From the UHGV virus genome UHGV-0356621: a stretch of 43,895 bases of DNA; one strand, written 5' to 3'. The translations under genes were made by a program, and so were the position numbers. The notes under the pieces were generated by a model, which saw only the letters and a program-made list of their open reading frames with translations, did not search any database and had not been told where the DNA came from. Shown piece after piece: positions 1 through 34,409 of the stretch (positions are counted from its first letter, which is position 1; each line of letters starts with the position of its first letter). This DNA comes from a virus.

Positions 1-166
1 TTTATTAGAAATTTGCACTTAAATCAAAAAGTTACGGACAATCCAACCACCAATCAATAAATTAAAGGGCACATTAAAGTACACAATATTTGTGCCCTTC
101 TCTGTTTCTTTCCCGTTATCAGCTAGCTGGAAACTTTTTATACAGAGTTGAGAGCCCTACTCCATA
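1..166. repeat. Terminal direct repeat, copy 1 (matches 43730-43895, 164/166 identical)
   Basis: Aligned by eye. Mismatches are at 16 (c vs a at 43745) and 87 (t vs g at 43816). The repeat covers the region downstream of the invertase gene plus its last 48 nt, and it runs to the window edge, so its true length is unknown. Confidence 0.95.
65..99 (-). terminator. Hairpin downstream of the invertase gene (possible terminator)
   Basis: AAGGGCACA (65-73) pairs with TGTGCCCTT (91-99), a 9-bp stem with a 17-nt loop. On the minus strand it is followed by the U-rich TAATTTATT. It lies 20 nt after the invertase stop. Confidence 0.45.
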
Positions 167-667
167 CGTTTTTGATACGCTTTGTCGTGATTCACCGGTT
201 GCCATCCGCTCCCCCATTTCCCGCCATTGCTCATCCGTGAACTTAGGCCTGCGACCACCAACTCGCCATTTTGCCCTGGCTACGGCCAGCCCTGCTAAGG
301 TACGTTCGCTATTAAGATCAGATTCATATTGTGCTGCGGAAAGGATGTTACGAAAGTTATAGCGGCCGCTGGCTGTTTTGAGATCCACGCCATCGGTAAT
401 ACTGCGGAAGTTGATACCCTTTTCCTGTAGCTGCTGGAACATCAACAGCGCATGCAGAACGTTGCGGCCTATCCTGTCCAGCTTCCAGACCACCAGTTCA
501 TCCCCCGACTGCATAGTGGCGATCAGCCGTTTTAGAACCGGCCGATTCGATTTCCGCCCGCTGGCATGCTCTTCAAAAATTTTCTCACAACCCGCTGACT
601 TGAGCGCCGTTAGTTGCAATTCAGTGTCCTGGTGGTTTGTTGATACTCGGGCATAACCGTAAATCAT
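119..667 (-). CDS. Serine recombinase, Hin/Gin/Pin/Cin-type DNA invertase
   Basis: MIYGYARVSTNHQ... carries the catalytic Ser motif, then VVWKLDRIGR, and a C-terminal HTH ending GLSTLYKK, as in Pin/Gin. The length of 182 aa is typical. AGGAG lies 4 nt upstream of this ATG; the track ORF (to 766) has a non-homologous N-terminal extension. Confidence 0.9.
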   Translation of the reverse strand: MIYGYARVSTNHQDTELQLTALKSAGCEKIFEEHASGRKSNRPVLKRLIATMQSGDELVVWKLDRIGRNVLHALLMFQQLQEKGINFRSITDGVDLKTASGRYNFRNILSAAQYESDLNSERTLAGLAVARAKWRVGGRRPKFTDEQWREMGERMATGESRQSVSKTYGVGLSTLYKKFPAS

Positions 668-671
668 GGGA

Positions 672-698
672 TTTCTCCTGTTATGAAAACAGGAGAAA
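672..698 (-). promoter_or_regulatory. Perfect 11-bp inverted repeat (TTTCTCCTGTT-atgaa-AACAGGAGAAA) covering the invertase Shine-Dalgarno
   Basis: Read directly. In the mRNA sense the 3' arm AACAGGAGAAA contains the SD and ends 4 nt before the ATG at 667. Confidence 0.7.
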
Positions 699-846
699 CG
701 GCGAAGCATCACCAGATTTTTGATGGTTATAAAAAAGGTTCGTTTAGAACTGGAGGGATGGTGCATGACTATGAAAGACGATGCTATTTAGATAGATAAA
801 CGGCGGGTCTCACTGGTGTGCGGTGATACAGCAAAACCCGTATAGA

Positions 847-1287
847 CTACACCTCTGGAGGAACAGGCCAGTTAACATTCTCGGGGTCGATTGTTACATC
901 AGCCTCTTTAACCTCATTTTTATAGGCCAGCCACGCTGACAACTTCGCTCTGTTGGCGTCGCTGATTTCACCGAGCATCAACTCCGTTCTCCAGTCGAGC
1001 ATAGTGGCGTCAGCTTGATTCAGTAAATGTTGGCGATAGCGCTCTGCTGCGGCCAGTAACTCATCGTAGGTTGGTGTCGGGATATCAACCCATACTGGCT
1101 TCGAATTTTTCGCCCCCAATATTTTCCCAGCAGGAGGAGTTACGCGCCAATATTTCTCGGCATCTTCATTTGAGACCTCAGTTGCATCTTCTGGCCATGT
1201 ATTTTCTGAATATGTGCCATCAGATTTCCATGAAGCAGGAATGAATGAGAGTAATGAGGGAACAAAATATGCGACTGTTTTTGTCAT
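847..1287 (-). CDS. Tail fibre assembly protein (Tfa/U-like chaperone)
   Basis: It lies immediately downstream of a tail fibre gene. The C-terminal half (YDELLAAAERYRQHLLNQADATMLDWRTELMLGEISDANRAKLSAWLAYKNEVKE) is the typical Tfa motif pattern. Confidence 0.8.
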   Translation of the reverse strand: MTKTVAYFVPSLLSFIPASWKSDGTYSENTWPEDATEVSNEDAEKYWRVTPPAGKILGAKNSKPVWVDIPTPTYDELLAAAERYRQHLLNQADATMLDWRTELMLGEISDANRAKLSAWLAYKNEVKEADVTIDPENVNWPVPPEV

Positions 1288-1288
1288 A

Positions 1289-2449
1289 TCAGAATCCTAA
1301 TGCAAACCAGCGGAAACCGTCTGCTGGAGTTGCTGTTGATACCCATGAGAAGAAGAAATTGACATCAGAGTTAGAAATGGCACCAACCTGAGAAAAAACA
1401 TCAATACCGGCATTTCCTGACAAATTGGACGGGGTTGCCATTGCCATCAAGGAGAAATTCGGGAACGGTGTTGGGAAAATAACGTTTTGCACCCCTTCTG
1501 GTATAGACTTTAAAACAGCGCCCCATTGAATTATTAACCCACCAGAAACGTCTGGAATGCGGACAAAATCATTCGCTGCAAAATTTCTCTTTGGAAGAAA
1601 TGATTTCAGGCCGCTGGCATCTACCATTTTTTTAGCCGTACCCGACTGAATATCAGCGGCGGTAGCGATCGGCCCCAATCCCAAACCTGAAAGTACTCCC
1701 GCTGCATCACTCCTGCCGAGTATTGTTCTTGCGAATGCTGTCAGATCGGTTATTGCTACAGTATCTTCGCCAGTGAAGTAAGGTAATTTATTTGCTGAAC
1801 TTGCCAGGGCTGCAATGGCAGTTAAAGTTGCATCCAGTGGTTGTTTCCCATTCAGCAATTCAGTTATGCCAAGGTAGTTCACGATATCAGCAATTTTTTC
1901 TGCCGCCACGACTGTGCGCCCAACGGTTGTAATTCCAGAAAGTCTGGCTGTGTTGCTGTCGTCAAAAAAAGGAAAACTGTTCCCAATGCCATTCAGCGTT
2001 GCGAGCTGCTTTAAACCAAGGTATGTGAGAATGTCAGCAATAGTATTTTTCCCGATAATGTCACGGCCAACAGAAGTTAAATCAGTCTGCGCTGCTGTAT
2101 CATTTCCAGTGAAATATGGGAGTTTATTTGCACCTGTTGCGAGCCCAGCTAATGCCGTCAGCGTGGCGTCAAGCGCCTGGAAATCCTTACCGAACGCGGC
2201 GGACATTTTGGTGATAAACCCGTTCAGGTCACCATCATCAAGCACGTCCAGCCCGCTTTTGTTAGCGGTGTACTGCGCCAACGCTGCCGCTATAAAGCTG
2301 GCCTGTCGAATGGCTTTGTTTACCTGCGCACTGGATGCCTTTCCTGCCATGAATCCAGAGAGTAGAGCCGGAAGTGTTTCCCAGTCAGCCTGGGCTGTCA
2401 CGTTAGCGTTAGGATCAATCGCAAACGCTTTAAAGTTATTTGTTGCCAT
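1289..2449 (-). CDS. Tail fibre protein 2 (side fibre)
   Basis: The N-terminus MATNNFKAFAIDPNANVTAQADWE... is common in enterobacterial prophage fibres. There are three internal repeats of the DATLTAxAxLAxxANKLPYFTGxDT...TDLT motif. AAGGAA SD is present. Confidence 0.8.
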   Translation of the reverse strand: MATNNFKAFAIDPNANVTAQADWETLPALLSGFMAGKASSAQVNKAIRQASFIAAALAQYTANKSGLDVLDDGDLNGFITKMSAAFGKDFQALDATLTALAGLATGANKLPYFTGNDTAAQTDLTSVGRDIIGKNTIADILTYLGLKQLATLNGIGNSFPFFDDSNTARLSGITTVGRTVVAAEKIADIVNYLGITELLNGKQPLDATLTAIAALASSANKLPYFTGEDTVAITDLTAFARTILGRSDAAGVLSGLGLGPIATAADIQSGTAKKMVDASGLKSFLPKRNFAANDFVRIPDVSGGLIIQWGAVLKSIPEGVQNVIFPTPFPNFSLMAMATPSNLSGNAGIDVFSQVGAISNSDVNFFFSWVSTATPADGFRWFALGF

Positions 2450-2458
2450 TTTTATTCC

Positions 2459-2761
2459 TTAAGCCCAGACGCGAGCCAGTGTTTTCGGTGCAACCACAAA
2501 GTCGTTCAGCCCGGATAAATCGAGCGAGTCATTCATGACCCGCAAATTGGCGTGATAGCCGGGTTCGGTGGTGTACTTGATAACTTCGTTTTCCTCGCCG
2601 GAATTGATAACTTCAGCAGGAACAGTGATAACGCCGACGATATCCAGGCTGATATCAGGGTGATAAAAACCACCCTGTCCCTCATCATCCACAAACCCCG
2701 CCGCGATTAATTGCGTGCGCATTTGGTTGGCGTCATTAAAGCGCAGATATAAGTCTCTCAT
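2459..2761 (-). CDS. Hypothetical protein between the two fibre genes (possible fibre accessory/chaperone)
   Basis: 100-aa ORF whose start overlaps the upstream fibre stop by 1 nt (shared base 2761). No recognisable motif; the call rests on position only. Confidence 0.45.
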   Translation of the reverse strand: MRDLYLRFNDANQMRTQLIAAGFVDDEGQGGFYHPDISLDIVGVITVPAEVINSGEENEVIKYTTEPGYHANLRVMNDSLDLSGLNDFVVAPKTLARVWA

Positions 2762-4269
2762 TAGCGGAGTCCATTGATTTGGTTGGGAGTTAGCAGGCGG
2801 TGCCAGATACGGAAATTGCGAATGTGGTAAACAAACCTTACGGATGTAGTTTGGTTTATATTCCCTATATACGAAACGGATTGCGTGATGTCATTAGGAG
2901 TAACGCTATGAGAGTTTGAATTACCGTTGTAGTAGTTTGATATCCTGCCCCTTTCCGTTGTATGAACGAATACTCCGCTACTACCCTGGAGGCAAGGTAT
3001 ACTAATGTCCGTTGAACTTCGATACGATTTTACTGTGTTGTCGTTAACCCACCTGCAAACAATATCATTGCTTGGGCCTTGTACCTTAACAACTTCAATA
3101 TATCCATCGGAAGCCTGTAAATATTTAGGGAAAAATTCAAATGCCAAAGTTCTGTTGAATAGCGTTGCAAGAGTAGGGTATCCACAGTTTTCTTTCGGGA
3201 TTTGCCAGTAATCAGCAGCTCTTGTAACTGTAGTTGCGGCCGTCGGGATATAGGATGTTGGGAATGGGCTATCTTCTAATTGTGCGCCCCAGGCGTATAA
3301 ACCAGATACGCCATCTCCGGTATAGATTGTTGACACACCATTTGCTAATTGAATGCGAATAACTGTTCTCTGACTCGCTCCGGCTGTGAAAACCATCCAG
3401 ACACGGTATATGCCATTTCCGAAATCATCAAAACCACGATCAACAAATTGAGCACCATGGCCAGGCCCAACCCAGGCACCTGCAGCCGGGTCAAAGAAAA
3501 CGCCTGATGTACTACCAGAAGCAACACGCAGATATAAATTACGCGGGCTGGTGTGAGCTTTTACGAAAACCGAATAACAATAAGTTGTTCCTGCTGTTAA
3601 AATAATATTGCGGTCTTGTGCATAGTGTTCAATGGTAGGGGAGGTACTCTCAATTATAAGCGCCATCGTTTTATCGCCGCGAGGCGAGTCGCCGCTATTA
3701 TTCGTTGTGGTAACGTCTTTCCCTGCGTCCCACTGTTCTGAATATGTATACAGGTTCGTAATCTGATGCTCAATTAAAAGCCCCTCTTTCTCAAAGCGCG
3801 GCTCATTAATTGCCGCCGTCTTCAGCACACCAGATTTATCGATGTACGTCGCCGTCGTTGAGCGAGTGAACGTCATCGACTTAGTGGGCAGAGGGTAACT
3901 TGTGCCGGCCACTGTGATTGTGTCCGCCGGCGCGATCCCGGCCAGCAGGCGAAGGTCATCGGACAGCGGCGCCCAGACATCCGGGAACGGCGCATCAACG
4001 TAAACGGTGGCGGCAGCCGAGTTCGCAGCATCAGCTGCGCTCTGGGCTGCTGCAGCGGCTGAACTGGCTGCAGCCTGCGCCGACTGGCTCGCTGATTGCC
4101 CTATCGCAACTACGTCGGCTTGTAGTCCGGCAAGCGTTTTAGCTTTTTTGCCCGTTCTGGTCGTAACCTCCTTACTGCTGGAATTTACGACCTCATCCAG
4201 AGTCTGCTGGTTATCAGCAAAGTCACGCAAATCGCTGGATGGTACTGAGTTATTTGTATTGTAAGGCAT
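2761..4269 (-). CDS. Tail fibre / receptor-binding protein 1
   Basis: It follows the baseplate genes. The N-terminal Ala/Ser/Gln-rich shaft is SASQSAQAAASSAAAAAQSAADAANSAAA. The C-terminal two thirds (about 2761-3700) are visibly more AT-rich than the flanks and rich in beta-strand-like sequence. Confidence 0.7.
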   Translation of the reverse strand: MPYNTNNSVPSSDLRDFADNQQTLDEVVNSSSKEVTTRTGKKAKTLAGLQADVVAIGQSASQSAQAAASSAAAAAQSAADAANSAAATVYVDAPFPDVWAPLSDDLRLLAGIAPADTITVAGTSYPLPTKSMTFTRSTTATYIDKSGVLKTAAINEPRFEKEGLLIEHQITNLYTYSEQWDAGKDVTTTNNSGDSPRGDKTMALIIESTSPTIEHYAQDRNIILTAGTTYCYSVFVKAHTSPRNLYLRVASGSTSGVFFDPAAGAWVGPGHGAQFVDRGFDDFGNGIYRVWMVFTAGASQRTVIRIQLANGVSTIYTGDGVSGLYAWGAQLEDSPFPTSYIPTAATTVTRAADYWQIPKENCGYPTLATLFNRTLAFEFFPKYLQASDGYIEVVKVQGPSNDIVCRWVNDNTVKSYRSSTDISIPCLQGSSGVFVHTTERGRISNYYNGNSNSHSVTPNDITQSVSYIGNINQTTSVRFVYHIRNFRIWHRLLTPNQINGLR

Positions 4270-4297
4270 GGATATTCCTTGAACGATTCACAGGAAA

Positions 4298-5071
4298 TTA
4301 AAACGGCGAATCCCATGCTCCCCGATCGAAACCGGAAACATATTCATCATCGAGGTCGAAACCGAAAAACTGATATCCAGCAGATGGCCTGATAATTTCA
4401 CGGATGCGAACGCCAGCGGGCTTAATAGTCAGATAGCCATTTTTTATTACCCACACCATTTCATTGCTCAGGTCATCAATCGGATTATTGAAATACTGAG
4501 AGGGTGTGTAATCCGCCGGGAGGTCGATAAACGGCCCGCCATTTATAGCCGAGTCTAAAATAAGCCTGTCTGTTGGATTGATAATCGCGTCAGGGTCAGC
4601 GAGAACCCAGACAGACTCTGTCATGTCCAGGTTATCAATTATCGCCATCCTGATGCCGGAGCCAGCCAGCGCCACATCCAGAATATCCGGTATGCTTTCG
4701 TTGCGGCCGTCCCACTGGTTCATTGCCGCCTTGGCATTAAGCACGACACGATAAGTATCGTCGCTTAGCTGCATCAGGCCTTCATCCGGGTCAAATGGCC
4801 CCTGCCAGTTACCGCGATCCCACCCAAGGCTGTCTGTGTCCCAGGAGAAGTAGACGCCGGTTATCGGCGTAGACACCTGCCTGCTGCGGCCGATCCACTC
4901 CCCCAGGATATCCAGTTGGACACCGATGGCTGTGTCCAGGTCAAAGCTGTCAATCAGCCCACCAGTTGCAATATAGGTATCAGTCAGCGGGCGGGTGATC
5001 AGGTCAATGTGCTGCGGGAAGAGTTGCCGGGTCGCGTGATAGTTTGTGATCAGCTCGGTATATTTGCTCAT
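4298..5071 (-). CDS. Baseplate/tail protein (DUF2612-like, gpI position)
   Basis: It lies after the baseplate J-like gene with a 4-nt overlap. FDLDTAIGVQLDILGEWIGR resembles the DUF2612 family (recalled from memory). Confidence 0.6.
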   Translation of the reverse strand: MSKYTELITNYHATRQLFPQHIDLITRPLTDTYIATGGLIDSFDLDTAIGVQLDILGEWIGRSRQVSTPITGVYFSWDTDSLGWDRGNWQGPFDPDEGLMQLSDDTYRVVLNAKAAMNQWDGRNESIPDILDVALAGSGIRMAIIDNLDMTESVWVLADPDAIINPTDRLILDSAINGGPFIDLPADYTPSQYFNNPIDDLSNEMVWVIKNGYLTIKPAGVRIREIIRPSAGYQFFGFDLDDEYVSGFDRGAWDSPF

Positions 5072-6264
5072 GAGGCGGTCACCTTGATGTTTGCCACATC
5101 GCAGTGCGCCGCCTCATCGAACAGAATGGTGATATTGGCTGCTGCGGTAGTGGAAGCGCTTTTCCCGACCTTCAGAGAGGTGATGTCGTAGAACTTGCTC
5201 TCCCCGCCGCTCATTACGCCCAGGTTAGCCGGAGAGTAAACCCGGCTCAGCAGCACGGGGTCGCCGATGCGCAGCGAGTTTATATATTTCGCCACCTCTG
5301 CCTTAATTCTGTCCGCCGTTGAGGTGGTGTAGCCAGGGTAAGTGGTTAACGTGATATCCACGAAAACCTCTACCACTTTCGGGCGCGAGAATCGTATTTT
5401 CTTGGATTCACCATATCGGCCCACCAGGTTTACGGTTGTCGTGCCGAATGGTGTTGTCCCAACATCCTTTTTACCGGCGATCACCGTGGCGATTTCAGTG
5501 GCATCGCCGCCGTCAACGATGCAGCACATAGAATGCGCTGGCAGACCGTTGGAATCGGTAGTTTCAGAGTCGTTCTCATAACTGCGCAGTCGGGTTACGC
5601 CAGTGACGTTAAGCAGCGCCCCGTCCACACCCTCCATGGTGGTTTGTAATGTCAAGGCAGTACTGCGGGCCTGCCGTTCGCGCAGCTGAGCGTCTGTTTC
5701 GCCACTTTCCCCCACGGTTGCTGCAGCCGGGTTATTCACTGTTCTCCACCCGCGCGTCGGCGAGGCTATACGATTTATGGTGTTAGCCAACGCCACCACC
5801 GGGCCAGAAATAGAGCAGGTGGCGGTAACTGTGATAGACTGGGTTTGCGGGATAATCACGCTGGCAGGCAGGTTCCAAACTGTGCCGTTCGCATCACGCA
5901 CACTGCCAGCGGTGATCTGCGTGCCGACGTCGCCTTCAATCACTACGTCTGCCGTGGAGTTGGTCGCCAGCTTCCTGGTAATGCCGTTGATTTTGACGTT
6001 ACTGGACAGCGCCCGCCCCATGCTCGTACTGGGTGAGAACGAGTTATAGGCAGCGATACTGGTGTTGTTCGCGTCATGGATTCCCAGCGCGTAAATCGCC
6101 AGCATTTGTCCGTCTTTGCTGTCTGGTTCGAGGTAGGCATCACTACCGTAAATCTGCCTGAAATAGCTGGTCAGTGTATCAAGGATTGTCTGGTAATCAG
6201 GCGCACTAATCCCCTGGGCGGTTACCGTTGCCGATAGCCCCAGCGTGTCGAGGTTCAAAGCCAT
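5068..6264 (-). CDS. Baseplate J-like protein
   Basis: 398 aa with a GETDAQLRERQARSTAL motif typical of the gpJ/gp47 family. It lies between the W-like and I-like genes. Confidence 0.75.
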   Translation of the reverse strand: MALNLDTLGLSATVTAQGISAPDYQTILDTLTSYFRQIYGSDAYLEPDSKDGQMLAIYALGIHDANNTSIAAYNSFSPSTSMGRALSSNVKINGITRKLATNSTADVVIEGDVGTQITAGSVRDANGTVWNLPASVIIPQTQSITVTATCSISGPVVALANTINRIASPTRGWRTVNNPAAATVGESGETDAQLRERQARSTALTLQTTMEGVDGALLNVTGVTRLRSYENDSETTDSNGLPAHSMCCIVDGGDATEIATVIAGKKDVGTTPFGTTTVNLVGRYGESKKIRFSRPKVVEVFVDITLTTYPGYTTSTADRIKAEVAKYINSLRIGDPVLLSRVYSPANLGVMSGGESKFYDITSLKVGKSASTTAAANITILFDEAAHCDVANIKVTAS

Positions 6265-6618
6265 TTATGCCTCGCTTGTTACAGTCGTCTGGCCGTAGAT
6301 TGTGTCAATGGAGGAAGTGAAGGTGACGCGACGGCTGGTGCCGTCATAATTGGTATCGAAGGAAAGAATCGACAGAACGCCCGGCGTATCCTGTATGCGT
6401 TCGCGTATAGCCAGGATGTAGACGTCAGATCGCTGTTTACCCAGCACTGATTGAACATATGGCGTGCCTTCCGTCAGATCGAGAAACCACTGACCGCGCC
6501 ACAGTTCGAAACGGGTTTTCACGGCCTGGGCGACACACTCCGGACTGTCGATAAGGAAAGTATCGTCACCCTGCCCGAAAGTGTAATCGCCGTCAGCATC
6601 TTCGCGACGGTATCGCAT
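6265..6618 (-). CDS. Small baseplate protein (gpW/Mu gp46 position)
   Basis: 117 aa, directly abutting the J-like gene. The call rests on position and size. Confidence 0.55.
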   Translation of the reverse strand: MRYRREDADGDYTFGQGDDTFLIDSPECVAQAVKTRFELWRGQWFLDLTEGTPYVQSVLGKQRSDVYILAIRERIQDTPGVLSILSFDTNYDGTSRRVTFTSSIDTIYGQTTVTSEA

Positions 6619-6621
6619 AGA

Positions 6622-7260
6622 TTAACCTCCCAGCGGCTTAGTATTGCTTCCGCCGCTCTCAACGCCGCCATGGGTATGCTTATCCACGATAGAACCGTCC
6701 ACCAGCTGCAAGCGACCGTCAGACAGTATTTTGAGCCCGTTAAGGTTGAATCCGCCCGGCGCTGTGCCATTTATTTCCCCGCTGGATGGGTTAAGGCTTA
6801 ATTTTGTACCGCCGTCATCGCTGCGCAGCTCTACCGAACTGGTACTGATGCCGCTGATTTTCTGCGCTTGCGACTGCGGGCCAACGATGGCGAACGCATC
6901 AGATAAGTCATGCTGGCGCGGGTCGACGGTCTCCTGAACGCCGCCGCTCTGCCACCAGAAATCGATGCAACGGTCGGCAAAGATCAGCAGGCACTCGTCG
7001 CCTTCTTTAACCGGAAAGGTCAACGTGCAACCGCCGCCGCGCGGGAAGATGACCGGCACATCCACCAGCGGTTTTAATTCGGTGGAGCCATCGCCAACGA
7101 CACCGCGAAGCGCCACCTCTACCGTGCAGGTAACAGCGTCAGGATCGAACGACTGAATGATGCCGGGCATCGCTACGCGCATCTGGGTAGACACCGAATC
7201 GGCAATGGCCTGCGCGGTCTGCTGCTCGCCGCCGATCTGTGATTGAGTTGGAATTGGCAT
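6622..7260 (-). CDS. Baseplate spike / assembly protein V-like (Mu gp45-like)
   Basis: 212 aa with an N-terminal OB-like region (VTCTVEVALRG...GDECLLIFADRCID) and a C-terminal Gly-rich tip, as in gpV-type spikes. Confidence 0.65.
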   Translation of the reverse strand: MPIPTQSQIGGEQQTAQAIADSVSTQMRVAMPGIIQSFDPDAVTCTVEVALRGVVGDGSTELKPLVDVPVIFPRGGGCTLTFPVKEGDECLLIFADRCIDFWWQSGGVQETVDPRQHDLSDAFAIVGPQSQAQKISGISTSSVELRSDDGGTKLSLNPSSGEINGTAPGGFNLNGLKILSDGRLQLVDGSIVDKHTHGGVESGGSNTKPLGG

Positions 7261-7269
7261 AAAAACCCC

Positions 7270-7296
7270 ATAAAAAAACCCGCTCGGTGGCGGGTT
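7270..7296 (-). terminator. Rho-independent terminator after the lipoprotein moron
   Basis: On the minus strand: AACCCGC-caccga-GCGGGTT followed by TTTTTTT. It lies 30 nt after the moron stop and 10 nt before the gpV-like start. Confidence 0.8.
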
Positions 7297-7326
7297 ATAA
7301 TTTTCTAAAAATATTAAAGAGCCATT

Positions 7327-8049
7327 TTAAAGTAATCCCATTTTTCTGGCAGCTTCAATATTGTAAACATCTCCACGACCACTACACGGGGCAGCTAATG
7401 TAACCATTTCCACATACCCTTTATTACCTTTCTGTTGGCATATGCTCGCATGCATTTTCGCAAGCCTTGCCGCATGCTCGAAATCTATATAACTATCAAA
7501 CGAAGCTTCACTTAATGCGGTATATTTTGTTTTATCAGGTATGCTATTTATTTTTAACATGCCAGAAAAGTCATTCAACGCTTTAGTTAAATTAGATATG
7601 CAAATATTTTTATAATTAGCATTATCATATGCTGAGGCTCTTTTGCATTCTTCAGCGTATCCAGTGATAGCGATTTGTACACGTCTCATTGTTAAATGAT
7701 AACCACCGACTTTCACATAAACGTTATCCATATTCTGTGAATTTGGATAACGAGTAACAAAGCCCAAATTGTTAAGCGCTCTACTTAGTTCGTTTCCACT
7801 TGAACTTGAAGAATCAACATCTAACTTTTCCACTTCTACTTCAGGGTGTGAAGCTTCGAAATTTTCAGCTTCTTCTTTTTGTTTTTTTAACCGATTTTTT
7901 TGATTTTCATCAACTTGCTTTTCATACTCAACTCTTTCTTTCTCTTTTTGTGCCAGCCATTCCCTTTGTGCATTAACACCATTAGGGTCCCAACTGCATG
8001 AAGTCAAAAACATTGAAAAGAAAATGGGAGTTATTGCAAGCATATTCAT
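7327..8049 (-). CDS. Predicted lipoprotein, AT-rich moron inside the baseplate operon
   Basis: The N-terminus MNMLAITPIFFSMFLTSC has a hydrophobic signal plus an L-T-S-C lipobox. A Lys/Glu coiled-coil stretch follows, then a Cys-containing C-terminal domain. The gene is markedly AT-rich compared with both neighbours and has its own terminator. The track start at 8052 is TTG; the ATG at 8049 is used here. Confidence 0.75.
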   Translation of the reverse strand: MNMLAITPIFFSMFLTSCSWDPNGVNAQREWLAQKEKERVEYEKQVDENQKNRLKKQKEEAENFEASHPEVEVEKLDVDSSSSSGNELSRALNNLGFVTRYPNSQNMDNVYVKVGGYHLTMRRVQIAITGYAEECKRASAYDNANYKNICISNLTKALNDFSGMLKINSIPDKTKYTALSEASFDSYIDFEHAARLAKMHASICQQKGNKGYVEMVTLAAPCSGRGDVYNIEAARKMGLL

Positions 8050-8056
8050 CAAAAAT

Positions 8057-9121
8057 TCATCCTGCGGTTTTGTTTATGGACGCTCCTGATTGCAAATCTC
8101 GCGCCCCCCTCGCAAAGCACATCAAATCCATGTACCACGCCTGACCTCTTGTGTCGCCAGTATAGTCGATAGCTTTGACGATATAAACGCCATCTGTAGC
8201 AATGCTGGCAGCCTGTGACGTCGTACCTGTCAGTACGCGGTTGCCGTTCTCTTCCGTCTCGGTGATACGCCCGGGCGACTGCGCGATTTCGCTATTGCCG
8301 AGTGCGGCGCGGTACACTGAAGCCTGATCGAGCTGGATAAGGCCATTAATGCGGATGTTGGGGTTTATCAAACACCGCACGTTTACGCCGCCGCCCATCG
8401 TCTGTTGCGGCATACCGATCAGGCCAGTATCGGCATTCAGCACGATGGCTTCGTGAATATATTTATCCTCCGGCACCATCTGGACCTGACCATCCACCAG
8501 CTGCCATGTCGCTTTGCACTGCGCAGCAATATTATCCATCACGTTACGGGTGGATGAGTAAATCGCGCGGCCACGAGGAAACACGGTATCAGGAAAGTCA
8601 CCGGTTATGCCCTGCGTTACGCCGAACGCGTTGAAATCCTGCATCGTCGCCCGGTGCAGATCCGCAACGGTATAACCGGCTGCAAGCGTGGTGATGGTAG
8701 TCGCATAGAGGAACGCTTCGTGGTCACCAATCGCCTGAATCAACACCCAGGAGTCGGTAATGTTATCCTTCCCGGTGACGGTGAAGCGAATATCACCGTC
8801 AAATATCAGGCCGTAGTTCTGACCGTTCACCTGCCCTACCTGGTCTGGTGAAATCTTCCGGGCGACACCAACCTGGCTCGCATCAACATCCGGCGCAATA
8901 CCGTCATACCCGGCAATGATGCGAATTTTTGCAAACTCCTGCCCCAGTATCTTGTTCGTGGTATCGGTCGAAAGGTTGTAAATTTTCACGTTCGCCACTC
9001 GCGGCCAGCGTGTATCTGCCCACTCGATCTGGAACGTGACCTTAAAATCAGACAGGGAAACGCCCTGCCCGTTCTGGTCCAACAGTTGCAGCTCAAAATG
9101 GCGCATCCAGTTAAGAGACAT
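8057..9121 (-). CDS. Baseplate hub / late-control-D-like tail protein
   Basis: 354 aa, lying between the tape-measure-proximal small genes and the spike gene. The call rests on position and size. Confidence 0.55.
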   Translation of the reverse strand: MSLNWMRHFELQLLDQNGQGVSLSDFKVTFQIEWADTRWPRVANVKIYNLSTDTTNKILGQEFAKIRIIAGYDGIAPDVDASQVGVARKISPDQVGQVNGQNYGLIFDGDIRFTVTGKDNITDSWVLIQAIGDHEAFLYATTITTLAAGYTVADLHRATMQDFNAFGVTQGITGDFPDTVFPRGRAIYSSTRNVMDNIAAQCKATWQLVDGQVQMVPEDKYIHEAIVLNADTGLIGMPQQTMGGGVNVRCLINPNIRINGLIQLDQASVYRAALGNSEIAQSPGRITETEENGNRVLTGTTSQAASIATDGVYIVKAIDYTGDTRGQAWYMDLMCFARGARDLQSGASINKTAG

Positions 9122-9123
9122 TT

Positions 9124-9429
9124 CTACTCCTGTACGAAAATGAGGTGGCTGTATGTGCCGAGGTTGGTTTTGGTGGGCTCGTCTGGTGCGCCCTTATCGG
9201 TCGCCACCACCAGCGCGCCATCAATGCCAAGCTGTGGATATTGTCGTAAAAGGTTTACGCCGGTCAGTAGAGGTACGCCAGAGAGAAGCGCGGCACCGCC
9301 GCTATCCATCACGTCCATAATCCAGCCAGCCGCATCACGCCAGATGATCCTGAGTGTATACGTGGTATTGCCCAGCAAAACTCGGAACCGCTGATTGTCA
9401 GGAGAAAGCGGTATTTCGTTAAACTGCAT
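9124..9429 (-). CDS. Small tail protein
   Basis: 101-aa ORF tightly packed in the tail operon; no motif recognised. Confidence 0.4.
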   Translation of the reverse strand: MQFNEIPLSPDNQRFRVLLGNTTYTLRIIWRDAAGWIMDVMDSGGAALLSGVPLLTGVNLLRQYPQLGIDGALVVATDKGAPDEPTKTNLGTYSHLIFVQE

Positions 9430-9430
9430 A

Positions 9431-10033
9431 TCATCCCCCGAATGCTGATGTAACGCTTCCGCCCAGCTGGCTCAGCAAGGATTCGTTTGGCGGTGTAGTG
9501 GATTTCATCCCGGAATTCTGCACCGCCGATGTGCTGACGCCATCCTGCATATCTGATTTATCTGCAACGCTAACGCTCTGCGTCTGCGACATGATCACTT
9601 CACGCAGGGTAAGCGTGCAGTTCAGCACGTTCTCGCTGGTTTTATCCGTTGTCACCTCGATGGCTCGCACCAGCATATTGCTGTAAACCCGCTTTCCGGT
9701 CACTACATCGAACGGCACCCGAGAGGACTGGAGATCCAGTAGTTGCTGATAGGTCTCTTTGGGGCTAAGTCCGGCGCTGAGGCCGATTGAAGATGTATCA
9801 ATGAAGTCCAGCAACGAACCGCCACCAGCGAAGCCGCATTCCATTGTGACTTCGCTGGGACGCTTATACGCATGATCGGCAATGAAACCCGATGCGCTAT
9901 TCGTTGTCGGCTTCTCCACCGGGTGCTCAGTAATTTCAAGCGCATCAGAATGCTTTTCGGAAACGACTACACTGGGGATGAGTATGCCAATTCGCCGGGA
10001 TTGCTGGCGAAAAATCGCTGATAAAATATCCAT
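9431..10033 (-). CDS. Tail/baseplate protein
   Basis: 200-aa ORF whose start shares base 10033 with the tape measure stop; no motif recognised. Confidence 0.4.
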   Translation of the reverse strand: MDILSAIFRQQSRRIGILIPSVVVSEKHSDALEITEHPVEKPTTNSASGFIADHAYKRPSEVTMECGFAGGGSLLDFIDTSSIGLSAGLSPKETYQQLLDLQSSRVPFDVVTGKRVYSNMLVRAIEVTTDKTSENVLNCTLTLREVIMSQTQSVSVADKSDMQDGVSTSAVQNSGMKSTTPPNESLLSQLGGSVTSAFGG

Positions 10034-12048
10034 TAGCTATTTCTCGTGATGAGTTGCTGAGTTAGAACAGAGTTGACACTCCCTTGGCGTTCAGCTGAGA
10101 GACGAGCCGCTTCACGTGGGTCGGAAACACCGTGGATGTTAATGTTCGTTTCCTGCTGAATCACCGGGGCGCTGGTGGGCATATTGCTCATCACTTTCGG
10201 AATGTAGTTGCGCGTTTCCTGCGGCATTAGCCCCATGCCATAGCGCTGAACGTTGCCGATCCCCCAGTTATATGATGCCAGTGCTTTGCTAAGGTCTCCG
10301 CCGTTCTGCCGCAACAGCTGGCTGAGGTACTTAGCTGCGGCCTGAGCTGACTTTTGCGGGTCGAATACATCGTTTCCGCGAAGGCCCATGTCTCGCGCCG
10401 TGCCATCCATGAACTGGAACAGACCTTTAGCGCCAGCGCCTGAAACGGCGAACTGATTACCGCCAGATTCCGTTATGGCCACACTGCGCAATAACCCCTC
10501 CGGAAGCCGGTAGAGCTGTTCCAGGTTGGTAAGCATCGGCTGCATCCATCCCAGCAGTTCAGAGCCTGCTTTGGTTGGCTGTGGCCGCTTAACTGACTGG
10601 CCGAGCTGTTCAGGCTCATCATCACCGAACCAGCCGCGCACCGTTCGGCCCACGCTGCGAGGATCGAATCCCCAGTGCTCTTTAATCCAGTCGGCTGTAC
10701 CGTTGGCGCTGTCTGTTACCATCGGCATCGCTGACGGATTTTCGCTGCCCTGATTTAGCAGCTGTTTGCCTATACTAGCGGCCTGCGCCCAGTTGCCATC
10801 TTTTATGGCATTCAGCAAATCAGCGATCATGTTCAGCATCTTGCCGAACTCACCCATTTGCGAAATGAAGTTGCTAAAATCCCACTTTAGGGACCATGAC
10901 TTGGGGTCAATACCGAGCAACTTAGCCAGCGCTTTTGTCAGGTCCGTAACAGTCTTTTTCAGGTCACCAATCATTTTGACGGCCTGATCAATTTCAGTCT
11001 TCCATTTCCCCCAGTCAATCAGGCTTTTGCCACCTTCTTTCCACGTCTGGTAATCATCCAAGAGCAGACCAAGTGCAATAATAAGCGTCGTTATCATGCC
11101 CAAGGGTGATGACATGAAAGCGGTATTTAGCAGCCGCCATGCAACCAACAGCCCACTGAACAATGCGATAAGCTGCTGCGTGGCTGGGTTCAGCTTTTTG
11201 AACCAGGCGATCACACCCTCAACAGCTTGCCCAGTTCGCCATAACACGCGGGTAATCGCGTCACCTGCCCAGAGAATTCCTTTGATGATCTTCGTGATGA
11301 CCGCTTCAATCTTCGGCCAGTTGTCGAGTATCTGCCTGCGGAAGTTATCAATACTGCCAGCAAGGCCACCAGCTAGGTTAGAGCCAATCTTGTCTTTCGC
11401 CTGTCCAAGCGTCATCGTCAGATTACGCATGGAGGTCATGAAAATATTGGACTGTTTAGCCGCTGACTCAGCATTAAAACCAATACGCTTTGCCGTCAAC
11501 GCGTACTCAGAACTGAGCTGCCCCATCCCTCTGCGCATCGCCATCAGCGTGTTTTCATCGATGCCAAGCATCTGCGCGTATTGCTTCGCGCGGTAATACG
11601 GCATGTTGTTGAGCTTTTGCCCAACGCCAGTAAAGATGGCCGCAGTATCACGCATCTTTCCGCTGGCATCTCGGGTCTGGACACCCAGACGGTTCAGGAA
11701 GCCTTCCGCCCCCGGATTGCTACGCATGAAACCGGCCAGCCCTTCGAGGGAGGACATGGCCGACTCGGCGCTGGCACCGGTTTGCGACGCGGCATAGCCC
11801 AGCGCTTTGATGCCCTGGACGCTGGCCCCCGTCCGTTGGGATGCCCAGTAAATTTTATCCAGACCATTCGCGATCTGGGTGGTAAATCCGACAATGCTCA
11901 GCGCTGCGCCTTCCACCACCGCGCCGACCTTCAGAACGTTTGCGGTAACGCCTTTCAGCACGGCTTCAAACTTATTAGCGCCAGCCTGATCGATATCGAA
12001 TCCCAGCGAAACAAGGAAGTCTTTAATCGTATCTGCGTTACCGCTCAT
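10033..12048 (-). CDS. Tape measure protein with C-terminal lytic transglycosylase (SLT) domain
   Basis: 671 aa with central hydrophobic/helical segments. The C-terminal LRSVAITESGGNQFAVSGAGAKGLFQFMDGTARDMGL...AAAKYL is the SLT catalytic-Glu motif. It follows the chaperone pair. Confidence 0.85.
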   Translation of the reverse strand: MSGNADTIKDFLVSLGFDIDQAGANKFEAVLKGVTANVLKVGAVVEGAALSIVGFTTQIANGLDKIYWASQRTGASVQGIKALGYAASQTGASAESAMSSLEGLAGFMRSNPGAEGFLNRLGVQTRDASGKMRDTAAIFTGVGQKLNNMPYYRAKQYAQMLGIDENTLMAMRRGMGQLSSEYALTAKRIGFNAESAAKQSNIFMTSMRNLTMTLGQAKDKIGSNLAGGLAGSIDNFRRQILDNWPKIEAVITKIIKGILWAGDAITRVLWRTGQAVEGVIAWFKKLNPATQQLIALFSGLLVAWRLLNTAFMSSPLGMITTLIIALGLLLDDYQTWKEGGKSLIDWGKWKTEIDQAVKMIGDLKKTVTDLTKALAKLLGIDPKSWSLKWDFSNFISQMGEFGKMLNMIADLLNAIKDGNWAQAASIGKQLLNQGSENPSAMPMVTDSANGTADWIKEHWGFDPRSVGRTVRGWFGDDEPEQLGQSVKRPQPTKAGSELLGWMQPMLTNLEQLYRLPEGLLRSVAITESGGNQFAVSGAGAKGLFQFMDGTARDMGLRGNDVFDPQKSAQAAAKYLSQLLRQNGGDLSKALASYNWGIGNVQRYGMGLMPQETRNYIPKVMSNMPTSAPVIQQETNINIHGVSDPREAARLSAERQGSVNSVLTQQLITRNS

Positions 12049-12651
12049 TGGCCGCTCTCCATTTATCTACCCGGGCGTCGTTATCCTCGCGCATGTCGAG
12101 GTAGTCATTGAGAAGCGCGATACGGCAGAGGTCTACCGCACCGCTGTTAAGGTCTTTCTGGTCAATATGGAAGGCAAGCGCCGGACGAAGAATAAAGTCT
12201 TCACCGCCCGGCAGGCTGTTGAAGGTTATTCCGCTGGCGGGGTGGGCGTCTCGCTGGTAGGGAGTCCTTGCAAAAAATTTCCCAGCGAGTCGGCGACCAC
12301 CCGCGCCACCAGTTGCAGCATGGTAAGCAGGTCGATATCGTCAAACGCCATTTCGCCATGCTGGCAGACCGGCACCCAGCCTTTCATGTGCTCGCGTGAA
12401 ACAACGGAAAGGCAGGGGAACAGGATAGCGTCAACGTCGCCATCGCTCAGATCGGACACAGCATTGGCAATCTTTGGCAGGATGGTAGCCATCGCGCCTT
12501 CGGTGTCTTTGCTGCTGATCTTCTCCTGAACGCTCCGGAAGTCAGAAACCATCCCGGCCAGCACCGGCAACAGCTTTCGGGACACCTTCAGCTGTTCGAA
12601 AACGCTGAGCTTTGCGGTGCGATATTTCACGCCTTTAATTTCGAATTCCAT
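12038..12651 (-). CDS. Tail assembly chaperone, -1 frameshift fusion product (GT-like)
   Basis: After A_AAT_TTT (12274-12280) the -1 frame stays open for about 80 codons (KFFARTPYQRDAHPASGITFNSLPGGEDFILRPALAFHIDQKDLNSGAVDLCRIALLNDYLDMREDNDARVDKWRAANER). It stops at 12038, just inside the tape measure gene. I checked this codon by codon. Confidence 0.7.
12226..12651 (-). CDS. Tail assembly chaperone (G-like, zero-frame product)
   Basis: 141-aa acidic protein between the tube and tape measure genes. It carries a slippery site near its 3' end. Confidence 0.7.
   Translation of the reverse strand: MEFEIKGVKYRTAKLSVFEQLKVSRKLLPVLAGMVSDFRSVQEKISSKDTEGAMATILPKIANAVSDLSDGDVDAILFPCLSVVSREHMKGWVPVCQHGEMAFDDIDLLTMLQLVARVVADSLGNFLQGLPTSETPTPPAE
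12274..12280 (-). promoter_or_regulatory. Programmed -1 ribosomal frameshift heptamer A_AAT_TTT
   Basis: Minus-strand sequence is ctg gga aat ttt ttg. The heptamer sits in the correct X_XXY_YYZ phase of the chaperone frame. Confidence 0.7.
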
Positions 12652-12654
12652 GCG

Positions 12655-13095
12655 TTAAAACTCCCCGAGCAGCTGGTCAATCTTGCCGCAGTCGAATACC
12701 CAGGCGACGGTTCCGCCCTCTTTAGCGTTATTGAAATCAGGCTGTTTCTGGAATGCACACGAACGCGCAGTAGAAATATCACCCGATGCCGTGTTGCGAA
12801 TAACGATCACGTTATTGCCCCAGGTTGCAGAGGACTGGCTCTGCGCGTTGTACGCCAGCGACAGCTTCTTGTTTACCGGTGATGTTTTCAGCAGGGTGAC
12901 CGTGATTGTTCCGCTTTTCCCGGCGTGCAGGCTATGCATCACCTCGCCGCCAGCTCCGATCGTCATGGTGTTTTTGTTCTCGGTCATGGTGACCGTGATG
13001 CCCTCTTCCGAGTTGGCAGAGCCGTAACCGAGATCGATAACCCCAGTTGGTCCGGTCATGGACGCGGTGACATCTATAAAGCTATAGGTTGACAT
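12655..13095 (-). CDS. Tail tube protein (DUF3277-like)
   Basis: 146 aa, directly after the sheath gene and before the chaperone. The family assignment is from memory. Confidence 0.65.
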   Translation of the reverse strand: MSTYSFIDVTASMTGPTGVIDLGYGSANSEEGITVTMTENKNTMTIGAGGEVMHSLHAGKSGTITVTLLKTSPVNKKLSLAYNAQSQSSATWGNNVIVIRNTASGDISTARSCAFQKQPDFNNAKEGGTVAWVFDCGKIDQLLGEF

Positions 13096-13105
13096 TCATT
13101 GCTCC

Positions 13106-14596
13106 TTAGCGAACCACATTGATGAGGACATCAGCGAAGTGAATGGCGCCCGCCAGTTTCGCCGCCACCTGAATCACCGGAGCTTTACGCGCTTCGCGAT
13201 CTGCCTGCGCCTGAGAGTTGAGGGGATTCGCGTAAACGTAATAACCCTTTGTCAGCGTGTCGCCCGGAGCTAACTGGCCGATACTTCCGCCGTTCCATAA
13301 CCCCGGAGCAACCAGCCCGTTATTCACTGACTGATCCATCGACTGCTCGATGTTCGTCACCAGGCGTGTCACACCGGCTTCGGTTTGTGGGATTTTGGTG
13401 GTGGAGGTGTAAAGCAGATTCCAGAGGTTGTTCTGGACATAGTTCTGTAGCCAGTCGAGACCGTGGCGCTCATCGAAGAAATCACCGTTGCACATCACGC
13501 CTTCCTGGATGATGGCGGTGTCGTTGGTGTAGCGTACGAACACGTTGCAGTTTTTGGCCTTCAGCGTGTCTGCCTGCTGCGCGGTGATCGTCTCTGCAGC
13601 GATGCCGGGCTCCTGCTTGAACTTCAGGGTAATGGTGGTGTTATTGCCCAGGAAGTTCACGGTAAATGCCCGGCCAAATGCTGACGCCGCGGCATAAGGC
13701 ACCTGGCTGTACTGACAGAAGGTGCGGCCGTAGCCCGCCGCTTTCAGCTTGTAGGCAATATCCGTGGTACTGGTTGCATCCAGAACCGCCGATGCGGAAG
13801 TGGTTACACCATACACGCGGGAGTCACTTGCAGAGCCAATCAGCGCGGAAACATCGATATGGTTCTGATCTGTCATCGCCGTGTCGGCAATTACCAGGCC
13901 ATACCAGTCGGCGGAGTAGTTCAGGGCGGTAGTGACCGACGGGAGAACTGAAGAGGACGCCGCCTGGCCGTTTACCACCGTGGGGTTGTGTGCTGAATCA
14001 ATGCCCAGTAGTGGAGCCAGGTCGGTGCCGGTTCCCGCAGCCGTCGGGATCCCGATAGCAGACGCCGCCCCGGTGGTGGTCGAGGTGATAACGAACTGGC
14101 TGGAGCCAGCCACCCAGGACACCGTAGCGCCGGTCATCTTCGCTGTAATCGCCGTCGCGACGCCAGCAAGGTCGGTAACCGCCGAGAGGTTAATCGCGGT
14201 GAGCGTTACAACTGTGCCGTTAATCGAAAGCTTCAGAGCGCCAGCTGTCACCGCTGTGAAGTTCGACAGCGCCTTTTCAGCCGTGGAGAGGACAGCGCCG
14301 GTCAACTTGCCTGATGAGGCAGAGACAGAGGTGCGGGCCAGTTTGCCGATGTACAGATCGCGAGGCTGCGGCGACTGCTGGAAGTAAAGATTAGCCGCTT
14401 TGTACTCTTCAGCACTGGTGCCAAAGTCCGTAGCGACGCTTTCAATGCTCTGATAGAGGCGCATCACCTCTGGTGCGGTGATCACGCTGGACGTGCCAAG
14501 CACCAGCAGCGCCCCAAAGTTGCGCCCGGCCGCCGCACGAACGGCGAGCGACACCTGCACGTTCACGACGCGCTGGACAGATAAGCCGTTAGGCAT
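13106..14596 (-). CDS. Tail sheath protein (DUF3383-like)
   Basis: 496 aa, upstream of the tube gene. The Ala/Thr/Ser-rich central insertion and conserved C-terminal region are typical of this sheath family (from memory). Confidence 0.65.
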
Positions 14597-14599
14597 GGT

Positions 14600-15163
14600 T
14601 TATTCTCCAAAAAAGGTGACTGGCGCTTCCACCAGCGATTTAATGCCGTACTCGCGCACAACCTTCCGGCGCAGGCGCACCGTCATGTCGTAGCGGCGAA
14701 CCCATTGCTGGTTGATAAGTTCGGGGAAAGGGGTCAGACCGGTATAGTCGCCCAGGGACAAACCAAGCGCGTTCAGCTCAGCATTGTTTTGCGGGACAGA
14801 TATGCCATCACGAAAACGGGAAGCATAAGACATACCAGCCGGGCCATAGAACGACGCCATGCACTCGAACGTTTCATGCCGCCAGAGCTGAGCGCCCTCA
14901 TCGGTCTGCCTGGTGAATGCAGGACTGTTATCAATGGGCCACCCGGTAACGCCGAACGCACACCAGTTCGTTTCAACTGACGGTAGTGATGGCTGTTCTT
15001 TCTGCCAGCGCGGGCGAACCATCCCAGCCGGCAAGCCGGAAACGTTGCGCATCCACTGGCTTAACAGCCTGTCGAGCGCTTCGTCATAATCCGGATCGCC
15101 GCTGGTAGGTGTCAGCCAGCCGCGCTGTGTGCTGGTGTTATTGCTCAACGGGAGTACCCCCAT
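14600..15163 (-). CDS. Neck/tail-terminator region protein
   Basis: ORF in the head-tail joining block. Start taken at the internal ATG (MGVLPLSNN...); the track start at 15205 is also possible. Confidence 0.45.
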   Translation of the reverse strand: MGVLPLSNNTSTQRGWLTPTSGDPDYDEALDRLLSQWMRNVSGLPAGMVRPRWQKEQPSLPSVETNWCAFGVTGWPIDNSPAFTRQTDEGAQLWRHETFECMASFYGPAGMSYASRFRDGISVPQNNAELNALGLSLGDYTGLTPFPELINQQWVRRYDMTVRLRRKVVREYGIKSLVEAPVTFFGE

Positions 15164-15527
15164 CAAACGGCAACAGTTCGCAATGTGCCTGGACGAAGCC
15201 AGCACCGTAAGCGGTATACGGATCGACGAATGTCACACGATAATCACGGTTCTGATACGTCACGATATCGGCATCACGGCCAGTCTGCCCCTGCGTCAGT
15301 CGCTCAGTCGTCACGATGAGAATCGCGCCACTGATAACCTGTCCGGCCTGCATGCGGCGGTTTTCCAGAGAGCGGTCAACGGTAACAACTCCGGCAAACT
15401 GCGTTTTAACATCGCTGTCGCTGCCGATCCCGTCCTCGTCCACCGTTTGCGCGCGACGCGTTACCCACAGGTTGAAGTCGCAAAAATCGGGGTCAAAAAG
15501 CACGTCTGTTACATCAAGAGTCGGCAT
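15138..15527 (-). CDS. Head-tail joining protein
   Basis: 129-aa ORF in the connector block; position only. Confidence 0.4.
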   Translation of the reverse strand: MPTLDVTDVLFDPDFCDFNLWVTRRAQTVDEDGIGSDSDVKTQFAGVVTVDRSLENRRMQAGQVISGAILIVTTERLTQGQTGRDADIVTYQNRDYRVTFVDPYTAYGAGFVQAHCELLPFDGGTPVEQ

Positions 15528-16101
15528 CTTTATCCCTCACAACATGGGTAATGGCTCTGCGGTATTGTCCGGTATCAATCAACGGCCTTACATTCTCATT
15601 GCTTATCAATTGACCAGAATCTGGGTTGATAGCATTAAGCTTTCCGTCTGCCGATCTGCGTGCTAACTCCGCTTTCGCCCCTTTACGCCCGCGACGCGCG
15701 CGTGCTTCAACGGTGCTATCAGCAAGCGGCGTAAAACCGGTAATGGTCATGTAACGCCTGACACCGTTAGCAGCCAGCGTACCCGCCTGGTTGAGAGCTC
15801 TTTCAGCGCCATCCGCATTACCATCAAGCGCAGCCTGCGCCGCTGCTTTGAGCTGCGGCACTGTCTGTTCCTCTACTGATTTAACGCCGGGGACCAAGTG
15901 CGGGCGTGGGGGGATGTTTTGCGCCGGTGAGCCGTATTCGTTGACGTAACCGATCCCGGCATTGCCAAACGGAACATCTTCACGCTCGCTGTCTTCCGAA
16001 GGGATGCCGACCAGCACATCCTTTTTGGTTAGCGACCTGAGCGCATCCAGAATGGCCTGAGCGTTATCCACCCTCGTTGTTACACCGCTTTTGAAACTCA
16101 T
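15514..16101 (-). CDS. Head-tail joining / head completion protein
   Basis: 195-aa ORF in the connector block; position only. Confidence 0.4.
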
Positions 16102-16505
16102 AGCTGGCGACCGCCCGCACCGAACATCGTGATCAGCTGATAAAATTCAGCGCCATATCGGGTGTTATTCCAGAAGCCCGCGTCTGGATTGAGTGTCATG
16201 CTGGTGTCATAGCTGACGCTAACCTTGTCAACAGACTTGGAGGACTGCACGCCATTGGTTGAACCACCCGGGCCACCAACCAGCATCGCCCGGCTATCTG
16301 CCGCCCAGAGCGTCATGTAGTGCGCCACGAACAACTCGGCAAAGTACGGAAACAACTTTTTGCCGGTGACGTTTTCACTCAGCAGCTCATCGGCCAGATT
16401 CAGGCGAAATTCGATTTGGGGATCGGGATATTTTGCCGGGTCAGCAAACTGCGGGAAGTCGCGCCGAAAATCACTTACTGTTGGCAGGCTTTGATTCTTT
16501 GACAT
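16098..16505 (-). CDS. Head-tail connector protein (DUF4054-like)
   Basis: [22 protein letters not shown]... resembles the DUF4054 N-terminus (from memory). The ATG at 16505 is chosen over the track start at 16541. Confidence 0.5.
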
Positions 16506-16839
16506 CTTTCGCCCCATTACCGCCAGTCTGGGCGGCAGCAATCTGCGCTTGCAGGCCGTCGTTCTGCTCCTGCAGCTTGAGCAGCGCTTCTTTCAGATCG
16601 GCAATCAGCTTATCTTTATCGGCAATCTGCGCTTGCAGGCCGTCGATAATGGGTTGCAGATCATCGGTGTTGCTAATCACGCTTTCGGAAAGCTCAGAGT
16701 GCGCCTGGGTGAACCAGTGCGCCGCGACCTCTTCCGACACATTATGCCGCCCCCGGCCAAACTCCTGTTTTGACTGATCGCCGAGCGTCAGCGTAAACGG
16801 GGTGTGAACATGGATGGTAACCAGCTTTTCTTTCGCCAT
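16471..16839 (-). CDS. Small coiled-coil head-associated protein
   Basis: 122 aa, just downstream of the capsid gene. It contains a duplicated DGLQAQIA heptad segment encoded by a perfect 24-bp repeat. Confidence 0.5.
16538..16645. repeat. Perfect 24-bp direct repeat GCAATCTGCGCTTGCAGGCCGTCG (16538-16561 and 16622-16645)
   Basis: Read directly. The period is 84 bp (28 codons), inside the coiled-coil ORF. Confidence 0.9.
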
Positions 16840-16854
16840 TTTCAGTTTCCTTCT

Positions 16855-16870
16855 GGCCCCTTTCGGGGCC
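16855..16870 (-). other. GC hairpin GGCCCC-gaaa-GGGGCC directly after the major capsid gene
   Basis: 6-bp GC stem with a GAAA tetraloop, 11 nt after the capsid stop. There is no U-tract, so it is more likely an mRNA-stabilising or attenuating hairpin than a full terminator. Confidence 0.6.
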
Positions 16871-16880
16871 GTTCTGGTTA

Positions 16881-17822: not shown

Positions 17823-17833
17823 TCGTCTGTTCC

Positions 17834-18337: not shown

Positions 18338-18341
18338 TGGA

Positions 18342-19574: not shown

Positions 19575-19588
19575 GGTTTACCTGCGAT

Positions 19589-34350: not shown

Positions 34351-34380
34351 TGGTGTCTCCGGTTGAGTCGTTTGATTTGG

Positions 34381-34409
34381 AGTTTAGCGTTATGCTAAAT
34401 ACTACGCAA
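34381..34409 (-). promoter_or_regulatory. pR candidate: TTGCGT-17 nt-TAAACT
   Basis: On the minus strand, -35 is at 34409-34404 and -10 at 34386-34381. Operator OR1 fills the spacer. It lies about 24 nt upstream of the cro ATG region. Confidence 0.6.
34383..34399. promoter_or_regulatory. Operator OR1: TTTAGCGTTATGCTAAA (perfect TTTAGC-N5-GCTAAA palindrome)
   Basis: Read directly; it overlaps the pR spacer and -10. Confidence 0.7.

Follow-up and report, generated by a model that had tools for sequence, protein, structure and literature searches.

Organization of the phage genome

We analyzed a 43,895-nucleotide stretch of DNA, UHGV virus genome UHGV-0356621 (the window), which represents a complete, mosaic temperate phage genome of 43,729 bp and contains no host genes. 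Its genes and modules are as follows.

0.1 to 4.3 kb: tail fiber assembly and fiber genes, together with the invertase
119 to 667, minus strand: pin-like serine DNA invertase (Resolvase and HTH_7), with its stop codon at 119 to 121; its last 16 codons and the stop lie within the terminal repeat
13106 to 14596: DUF3383/E217_gp31-like gene of the baseplate, tape measure, and contractile-tail module; the head genes come next
20211 to 21707: portal
21680 to 23125, minus strand: terminase large subunit (Terminase_3)
23007 to 23762, minus strand: terminase small subunit
After the terminase genes: spanin, endolysin, Q, the nin region, the O and P replication genes, and cII
34350 to 35144, plus strand: cI-like repressor
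Before Xis and Int, toward the end of the window: N, Kil, Gam, RecT, and YqaJ exonuclease
42137 to 42334, plus strand: excisionase, Xis (phrog_1553 match, 7e-34)
42331 to 43581, minus strand: tyrosine integrase, Int, 416 aa (Arm-DNA-bind_3 and Phage_integrase)

The 416-aa Int open reading frame is identical to the Int of HK225, of mEp237, and of the phi80 remnant in DH10B. The remaining genome, however, is unlike that of phi80, and the structural genes of the window are similar to those found in Citrobacter phage Omnitron and Salmonella phage SEN34 (89 to 94% identity over part of the query). The phage joins an int-xis-attP-pin module of phi80 type, together with an early region like that of lambda, to an Omnitron/SEN34-like module for the contractile tail and Terminase_3 packaging, and it can be recorded as complete with this pairing of integration and tail modules. 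Escherichia coli G3/10 carries a prophage in which the tail and head module recurs, with 67% of the first 25 kb matched at about 95% identity, and no phage record or complete E. coli genome covers at least 80% of the same 25 kb. Taken as a whole, the phage combines known modules into a new mosaic; the att site itself is nothing new.

Two further observations concern the genes listed above. The pin-like invertase appears to be orphaned (region 119 to 4269), as we found neither inverted crossover sites nor an alternative set of fiber or assembly genes and saw no convincing inverted repeats flanking the fiber genes. The 5' part of the small-terminase gene contains an imperfect tandem of two 33-nt units (CTTTTGCGAATTCGCAGTTTTATTCGCACTTTT, 85% identity) at positions 23571 to 23636, a possible location for pac or for TerS binding.

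An imperfect direct repeat at the two ends of the window

Direct comparison of positions 1 to 166 with positions 43730 to 43895 showed that they are identical save for two substitutions, C/A at 16/43745 and T/G at 87/43816. A repeat search over the whole window returned this pair as the sole long direct repeat (166 nt, 99% identity, spacing of 43,729), in agreement with the initial annotation, which had described the ends as a 166-bp direct repeat with two mismatches. Such a repeat is beyond chance. Its two copies differ in what precedes them.

1 to 166: left copy, a P' arm that starts 2 bp past the core; alleles C16 and T87
43730 to 43895: right copy, a P' arm that follows a P arm and the core as part of an intact attP; alleles A43745 and G43816

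The final 79 nt of the right copy, past the second mismatch, match the left copy exactly. Both copies reach the edge of the window, and it had been suggested that the repeat might extend further. This is borne out by free relatives with an intact attP, in which the 40 bases past the equivalent of 43895 are colinear with window positions 167 to 206; the repeat is therefore limited only by the window edge. Exact-pattern scans of IMG/VR, GTDB genomes, and JGI/ENA metagenomes, as well as protein look-ups, yielded no contig with sequence past the edges of the window. The 3' end of the invertase gene and a hairpin had also been placed within the repeat, in accordance with the stop codon and with the stems that we located at 65 to 73 and 91 to 99. 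The region from 43525 to 43729, noted earlier as AT rich, has a GC content of 38.5%, compared with 52.5% for the entire window and 32% for positions 1 to 118.

The positions that vary are informative when set against 13 relatives. An A at position 16 is a natural allele, found only in HK225 among the relatives compared, and a G at 87/43816 occurs in 0 of the 13. Both window copies carry a C at 43/43772, where all 13 relatives have a T, and this private base common to the two copies indicates that they belong to one lineage.

The right end matches the attachment site of phi80

Phage phi80 integrates at yciI (PMC5727415), and in E. coli lysogens the prophage is located between yciI and kch. For comparison with free phages we used phi80, HK225, mEp237, and mEpX1 (GenBank JX871397, X04051, JQ086371, JQ182730, and JQ182727). 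The following att features were located.

43711 to 43727: attP core, 17 bp, ATTTAAGAAAGTGTTCT, present in E. coli lysogens at both attL and attR; it overlaps the final codons of yciI
43582 to 43710: P arm, the AT-rich spacer from the int start to the core, 100% identical, up to 43727, to attR of DH10B, ECCRA-119, and others
22 to 34, plus strand: predicted IHF consensus AATCAAAAAGTTA, corresponding to the IHF site annotated in phi80; second copy at 43751 to 43763
52 to 64, plus strand: second predicted IHF consensus AATCAATAAATTA; repeat copy at 43781 to 43793
65 to 99: hairpin with GC-rich stems of 9 to 10 bp (the two stems given above) and a 17-nt loop; second copy at 43794 to 43828
43552 to 43571, plus strand: two GTACACAA motifs, candidate arm-type Int sites, in the P arm next to the int start

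From end to end, the 336 bases at 43560 to 43895 align colinearly with the int-attP-pin region of the free phages HK225, mEp237, mEpX1, and phi80 (98.8 to 99.4% identity). These four phages have the same 17-bp core as the window, an identical P arm, and a P' arm that is 98 to 99% identical and includes the annotated IHF site; they also share the order int, attP, pin and the 3' end of yciI as host target. The P' arm of the window departs from this group by its private C43, in both copies, and by G87, in one. The GenBank annotations place the attP core at the equivalent of 43708 to 43724 in phi80 and of 43711 to 43727 in HK225, and the latter segment is identical in all four phages.

The integrated forms delimit the core from either side. 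In attL of E. coli lysogens (yciI, core, P' arm), the match to the window begins at 43708 to 43711, and in attR, which we found in about 176 E. coli genomes as the same int followed by host DNA, identity to the window ends at 43727 to 43730 on the kch side. From this onset and this end, the core is 43711 to 43727 and the repeat is the P' arm 2 bp beyond it. The att site is thus located at single-base resolution, its host target being the 3' end of yciI, and the earlier assignment of attP to the interval between the invertase and int holds, with a core identical to those annotated in phi80 and HK225.

Prophages at yciI-kch in E. coli G3/10 and ECCRA-119 have an attL made up of yciI, core, P' arm, and pin, as the window would require, but they end in attR (P arm, core, kch side), whereas the window ends in attP. 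In a survey of 5,426 complete E. coli genomes, the int/att module was present in about 176 and the P-core-P' junction in 0, from which we take a chromosomal origin of this junction to be uncommon. One of 297 matches to the int/att region in E. coli lies on a plasmid record rather than on a chromosome. In metagenomic data, an intact int-attP-pin junction of the same family is present in an 11-kb human gut contig (ENA OWZX01000017). Two related phages in IMG/VR (UViGs 2585428014_000001 and 3300045988_002995) start exactly at base 1 of the core, the equivalent of 43711; assemblies typically break at this point, where the attL path joins the attP path.

The IHF consensus has six matches in the whole window, four of which are the two sites listed above and their repeat copies. 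The GTACACAA motif occurs four times in the window, compared with 0.65 expected, and all four copies lie in the att arms (79 to 86, 43552 to 43559, 43564 to 43571, and 43808 to 43815): two are by the int start and promoter, and one, in the hairpin loop of P', is counted twice through the repeat. We regard these copies as candidate arm-type Int binding sites. A near-copy of the motif is present at 43532 to 43539, and mismatch 87 is the base directly after the P' copy. The hairpin at 65 to 99 folds with −13.7 kcal/mol (z of about −4) and has T/U-rich runs on both strands; its features are terminator-like for the invertase gene and, after integration, for yciI. A terminator scan made no call at this hairpin, whose 17-nt loop exceeds the limit of the scanner, while folding supports it. 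Mismatch 87 sits in the loop and leaves the fold unchanged. The Int lineage, the identity of the core, the P and P' arms with their predicted IHF sites, and an adjacent excisionase gene were all found. In sequence, the window closes on the right with an intact attP, in the order int, P arm, core, P' arm, and not with an attR.

The attP junction in an independent assembly

Protein look-ups recovered the private proteins of the window in only one other data set, the Logan contigs of run SRR6504918. These contigs match the window with 0 mismatches over positions 17 to 2858, 2833 to 22048 and beyond (a 29,264-bp contig), and 35704 to 43740, and they end where the assembly graph forks. Logan contig numbers above 46,000 suggest that SRR6504918 is a metagenome; a literature search found no paper that mentions the run.

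One contig, L020, crosses the core and continues 13 bases into P'; at 43727 it shows no branch leading to attR. The sample behind SRR6504918 therefore contains the attP junction, and its attR path is either missing or has been pruned. L020 stops at 43740, with the final 31-mer that still distinguishes the attL path from the attP path, and this end implies that the attL junction is in the sample as well. Another contig, L013, begins at position 17, the base after the first mismatch, as would be expected where position 16 has two alleles; L013 has a T at 87. Since the SRR6504918 assembly breaks at 16/17, the difference at position 16 is probably real and present in the reads, and G87 may be real or an error. 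The initial annotation had found the two mismatches unexpected for a trivial wrap-around, a concern that gains weight from an independent assembly breaking exactly after position 16.

A second break lies further inside. L013 and L030 overlap by just 26 nt, from 2833 to 2858, inside the 3' end of a gene for a 502-aa fiber protein. We considered an invertible tail fiber segment as the cause and rejected it, as the 26-mer has no second copy in the window even at 3 mismatches and the fiber genes lack convincing inverted repeats on their flanks. The break is probably a mosaic joint or a sequence common to another prophage in the sample.

Origin of the terminal repeat

We consider it very probable that the repeat is a phi80-type P' arm written twice and that the window is one complete genome of 43,729 bp plus 166 bp. 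The true genome unit would then measure 43,729 bp, which calls for trimming of the final 166 bases. Of the two forms that had been proposed, a circular genome or a headful-packaged, terminally redundant one, the wrap-around stands, as it passes through attP, whereas headful packaging does not agree with the terminase genes at 21.7 to 23.8 kb, about 20 kb away. This explanation is ordinary, the phi80-type attachment site being already known, and the repeat implies no new mechanism.

How a sequence of this form came to be written is less certain, and we lean, if only slightly, toward a trimmed provirus whose attP junction derives from free, excised, or replicating phage DNA present beside the lysogen. 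The left edge speaks for trimming. Position 1 corresponds to the base that directly follows the stop codon of yciI, where the coding sequence ends, in attL of ECCRA-119. The chance that a random linearization point falls within 10 bp of the core is about 5 in 10,000, which ties the left edge of the window to att. Its position at the yciI stop suggests a provirus cut from a host contig. CheckV writes contiguous regions in the style "host 1-X, viral X+1-end," and the trimmed-provirus reading of the left edge draws both on this coordinate style and on the coincidence with the yciI stop. We rejected the alternative that position 1 is the raw start of a de Bruijn contig, because attL and attP paths converge at 43711, where the two IMG/VR sequences start, and not at 43730; a cut at the gene boundary after yciI appears to fit the left edge better than a de Bruijn break.

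The events behind such a record might have been the following. Int, IHF, and Xis would recombine attL with attR at the core, which would restore attP on the excised circle, and each replicating or packaged copy of the phage would likewise bear attP. In a metagenome assembly, the source contig would run from the host through yciI and attL, across the whole phage to attP, and 166 bp further to its end: the far end of the contig would have taken reads from excised, replicating, or virion DNA through attP and not attR, and assembly would have halted on reentering sequence already used. The provirus would then, most likely, have been trimmed from the host contig at a gene boundary. The exact match of the last 79 bases is a hint, and only that, of a side path that rejoined the main one through an overlap of about 79. 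As for the two mismatches, they would reflect sequence variation that separates the integrated copy from attP-bearing molecules, or else residual errors in a thinly covered junction path.

Two observations run counter to this account. Excised DNA with the same genome as the prophage would not be expected to carry the two mismatches, and the fork at position 16 indicates two haplotypes and not a single clone. Moreover, free phage in great excess should have led to the pruning of attL like that of attR, yet attL is seen and attR is not.

The same observations can be read as a real duplication in a chromosome, a rival that we take seriously but hold to be somewhat unlikely. Tandem or diverged copies, and integration next to a related invertase gene, were also among the alternatives raised in the initial annotation. 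This could be a tandem double lysogen (attL, phage, attP, phage, attR) or an integration at the attL of a phi80-like remnant that kept its P' arm and pin; with the same degree of doubt, the right repeat copy would belong to a second, slightly diverged element. Tandem integrants and polylysogens, known for lambda, phi80, and CRIM plasmids, regenerate attP between the copies and would give the order seen in the window, attL ... int, attP, P' arm. Attachment-site integrants of this tandem, attP-regenerating type are said to be routine with phi80-attP CRIM plasmids (attributed to Haldimann and Wanner in 2001). The two substitutions separating the repeat copies, the natural occurrence of A16 in HK225, and the Logan break at 16/17, which places both alleles in the reads, are all in favor of two elements. 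So is the lack of an attR fork at 43727 in L020, which is expected if the int-proximal junction is solely P-core-P'. Double phi80-type lysogens occur in laboratory strains (PMC5727415). On the other hand, this arrangement of a phi80-type module is absent from the complete E. coli genomes surveyed, with no P-core-P' junction in any of the 5,426 despite the roughly 176 that carry int/att. The private C at 43/43772 in both copies would require the second element to be a very close relative, the unbroken 29-kb Logan contig argues against two copies diverged genome-wide, and in a full tandem the coverage of attR would equal that of attP and should fork L020. In its specific form, a natural and probably gut E. 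coli in which the phage integrated beside a second, slightly diverged phi80-family element (as tandem polylysogen or at a remnant attL), we judge the idea unlikely. If it were true, an intact, recombination-competent attP would lie inside a chromosome, and the P' arms with C16/T87 and with A16/G87 would mark the two elements.

An assembly artefact is quite unlikely in our estimate. It would consist of an untrimmed circular or looped overlap that contains errors or of a chimera in which the conserved P arm and core were joined to the P' arm belonging to another phi80-family phage in the metagenome. G87/43816, absent from all 13 relatives and replaced by T in the Logan contig, has the look of an error, and both differences are transversions (C>A and T>G), classes that are common among Illumina artefacts. 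The sequence stops 79 nt past the last mismatch, a distance that may reflect a k-mer overlap, cross-joins are easy because all members of the family have identical P arm and int sequences, and the Logan numbering points to a metagenome. Random error at position 16 is nevertheless argued against by the fork in an independently built graph, and an unrelated donor phage by the private C43 in both copies.

Redundancy of the virion DNA through headful or direct terminal repeat packaging is extremely improbable: Terminase_3 large terminases (PBSX/SPP1-like) are usually linked to headful packaging and would make virion DNA terminally redundant, but the repeat starts 2 bp past the att core and about 20 kb from terS/terL, its copies are nonidentical (two substitutions), and a headful redundancy is permuted and kilobase sized and does not assemble as a fixed 166-bp end. 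We rejected headful redundancy on account of the position of the repeat. Hardly any probability attaches, either, to the two copies being the attL and attR of a single prophage with a 166-bp duplication of the host target, as at icd for e14; yciI does lie directly left of position 1 in relatives, but the right copy follows a P arm and core, colinear with the attP of free phages, true attR sequences leave the window at 43728 for kch-side DNA, and the core is absent from the left copy. We likewise rejected a long target duplication of the e14/icd kind, as the right flank is phage P' DNA and not host DNA. The true att duplication that the initial annotation had left open is not supported: what is repeated is the P' arm rather than the core, and no host B' sequence follows the right copy.

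Under a trimmed provirus with attP-bearing DNA beside it, as under a tandem, the attP junction means that phage genomes with joined ends were in the sample, whether excised, replicating, packaged, or in tandem. If these joined-end copies were free rather than in tandem, they would be weak evidence for an active prophage.

Effect of integration on yciI

Integration retains the reading frame of yciI and exchanges its stop codon. On the attR side, T-GA follows the core (positions 4508 to 4510 of L001 and the attR of L002), and an unoccupied yciI would accordingly end in TGA. In attL, the P' arm of the phage provides TAA at the equivalent of 43727 to 43729, followed by the phage hairpin at 65 to 99, which could serve as a replacement terminator for yciI.
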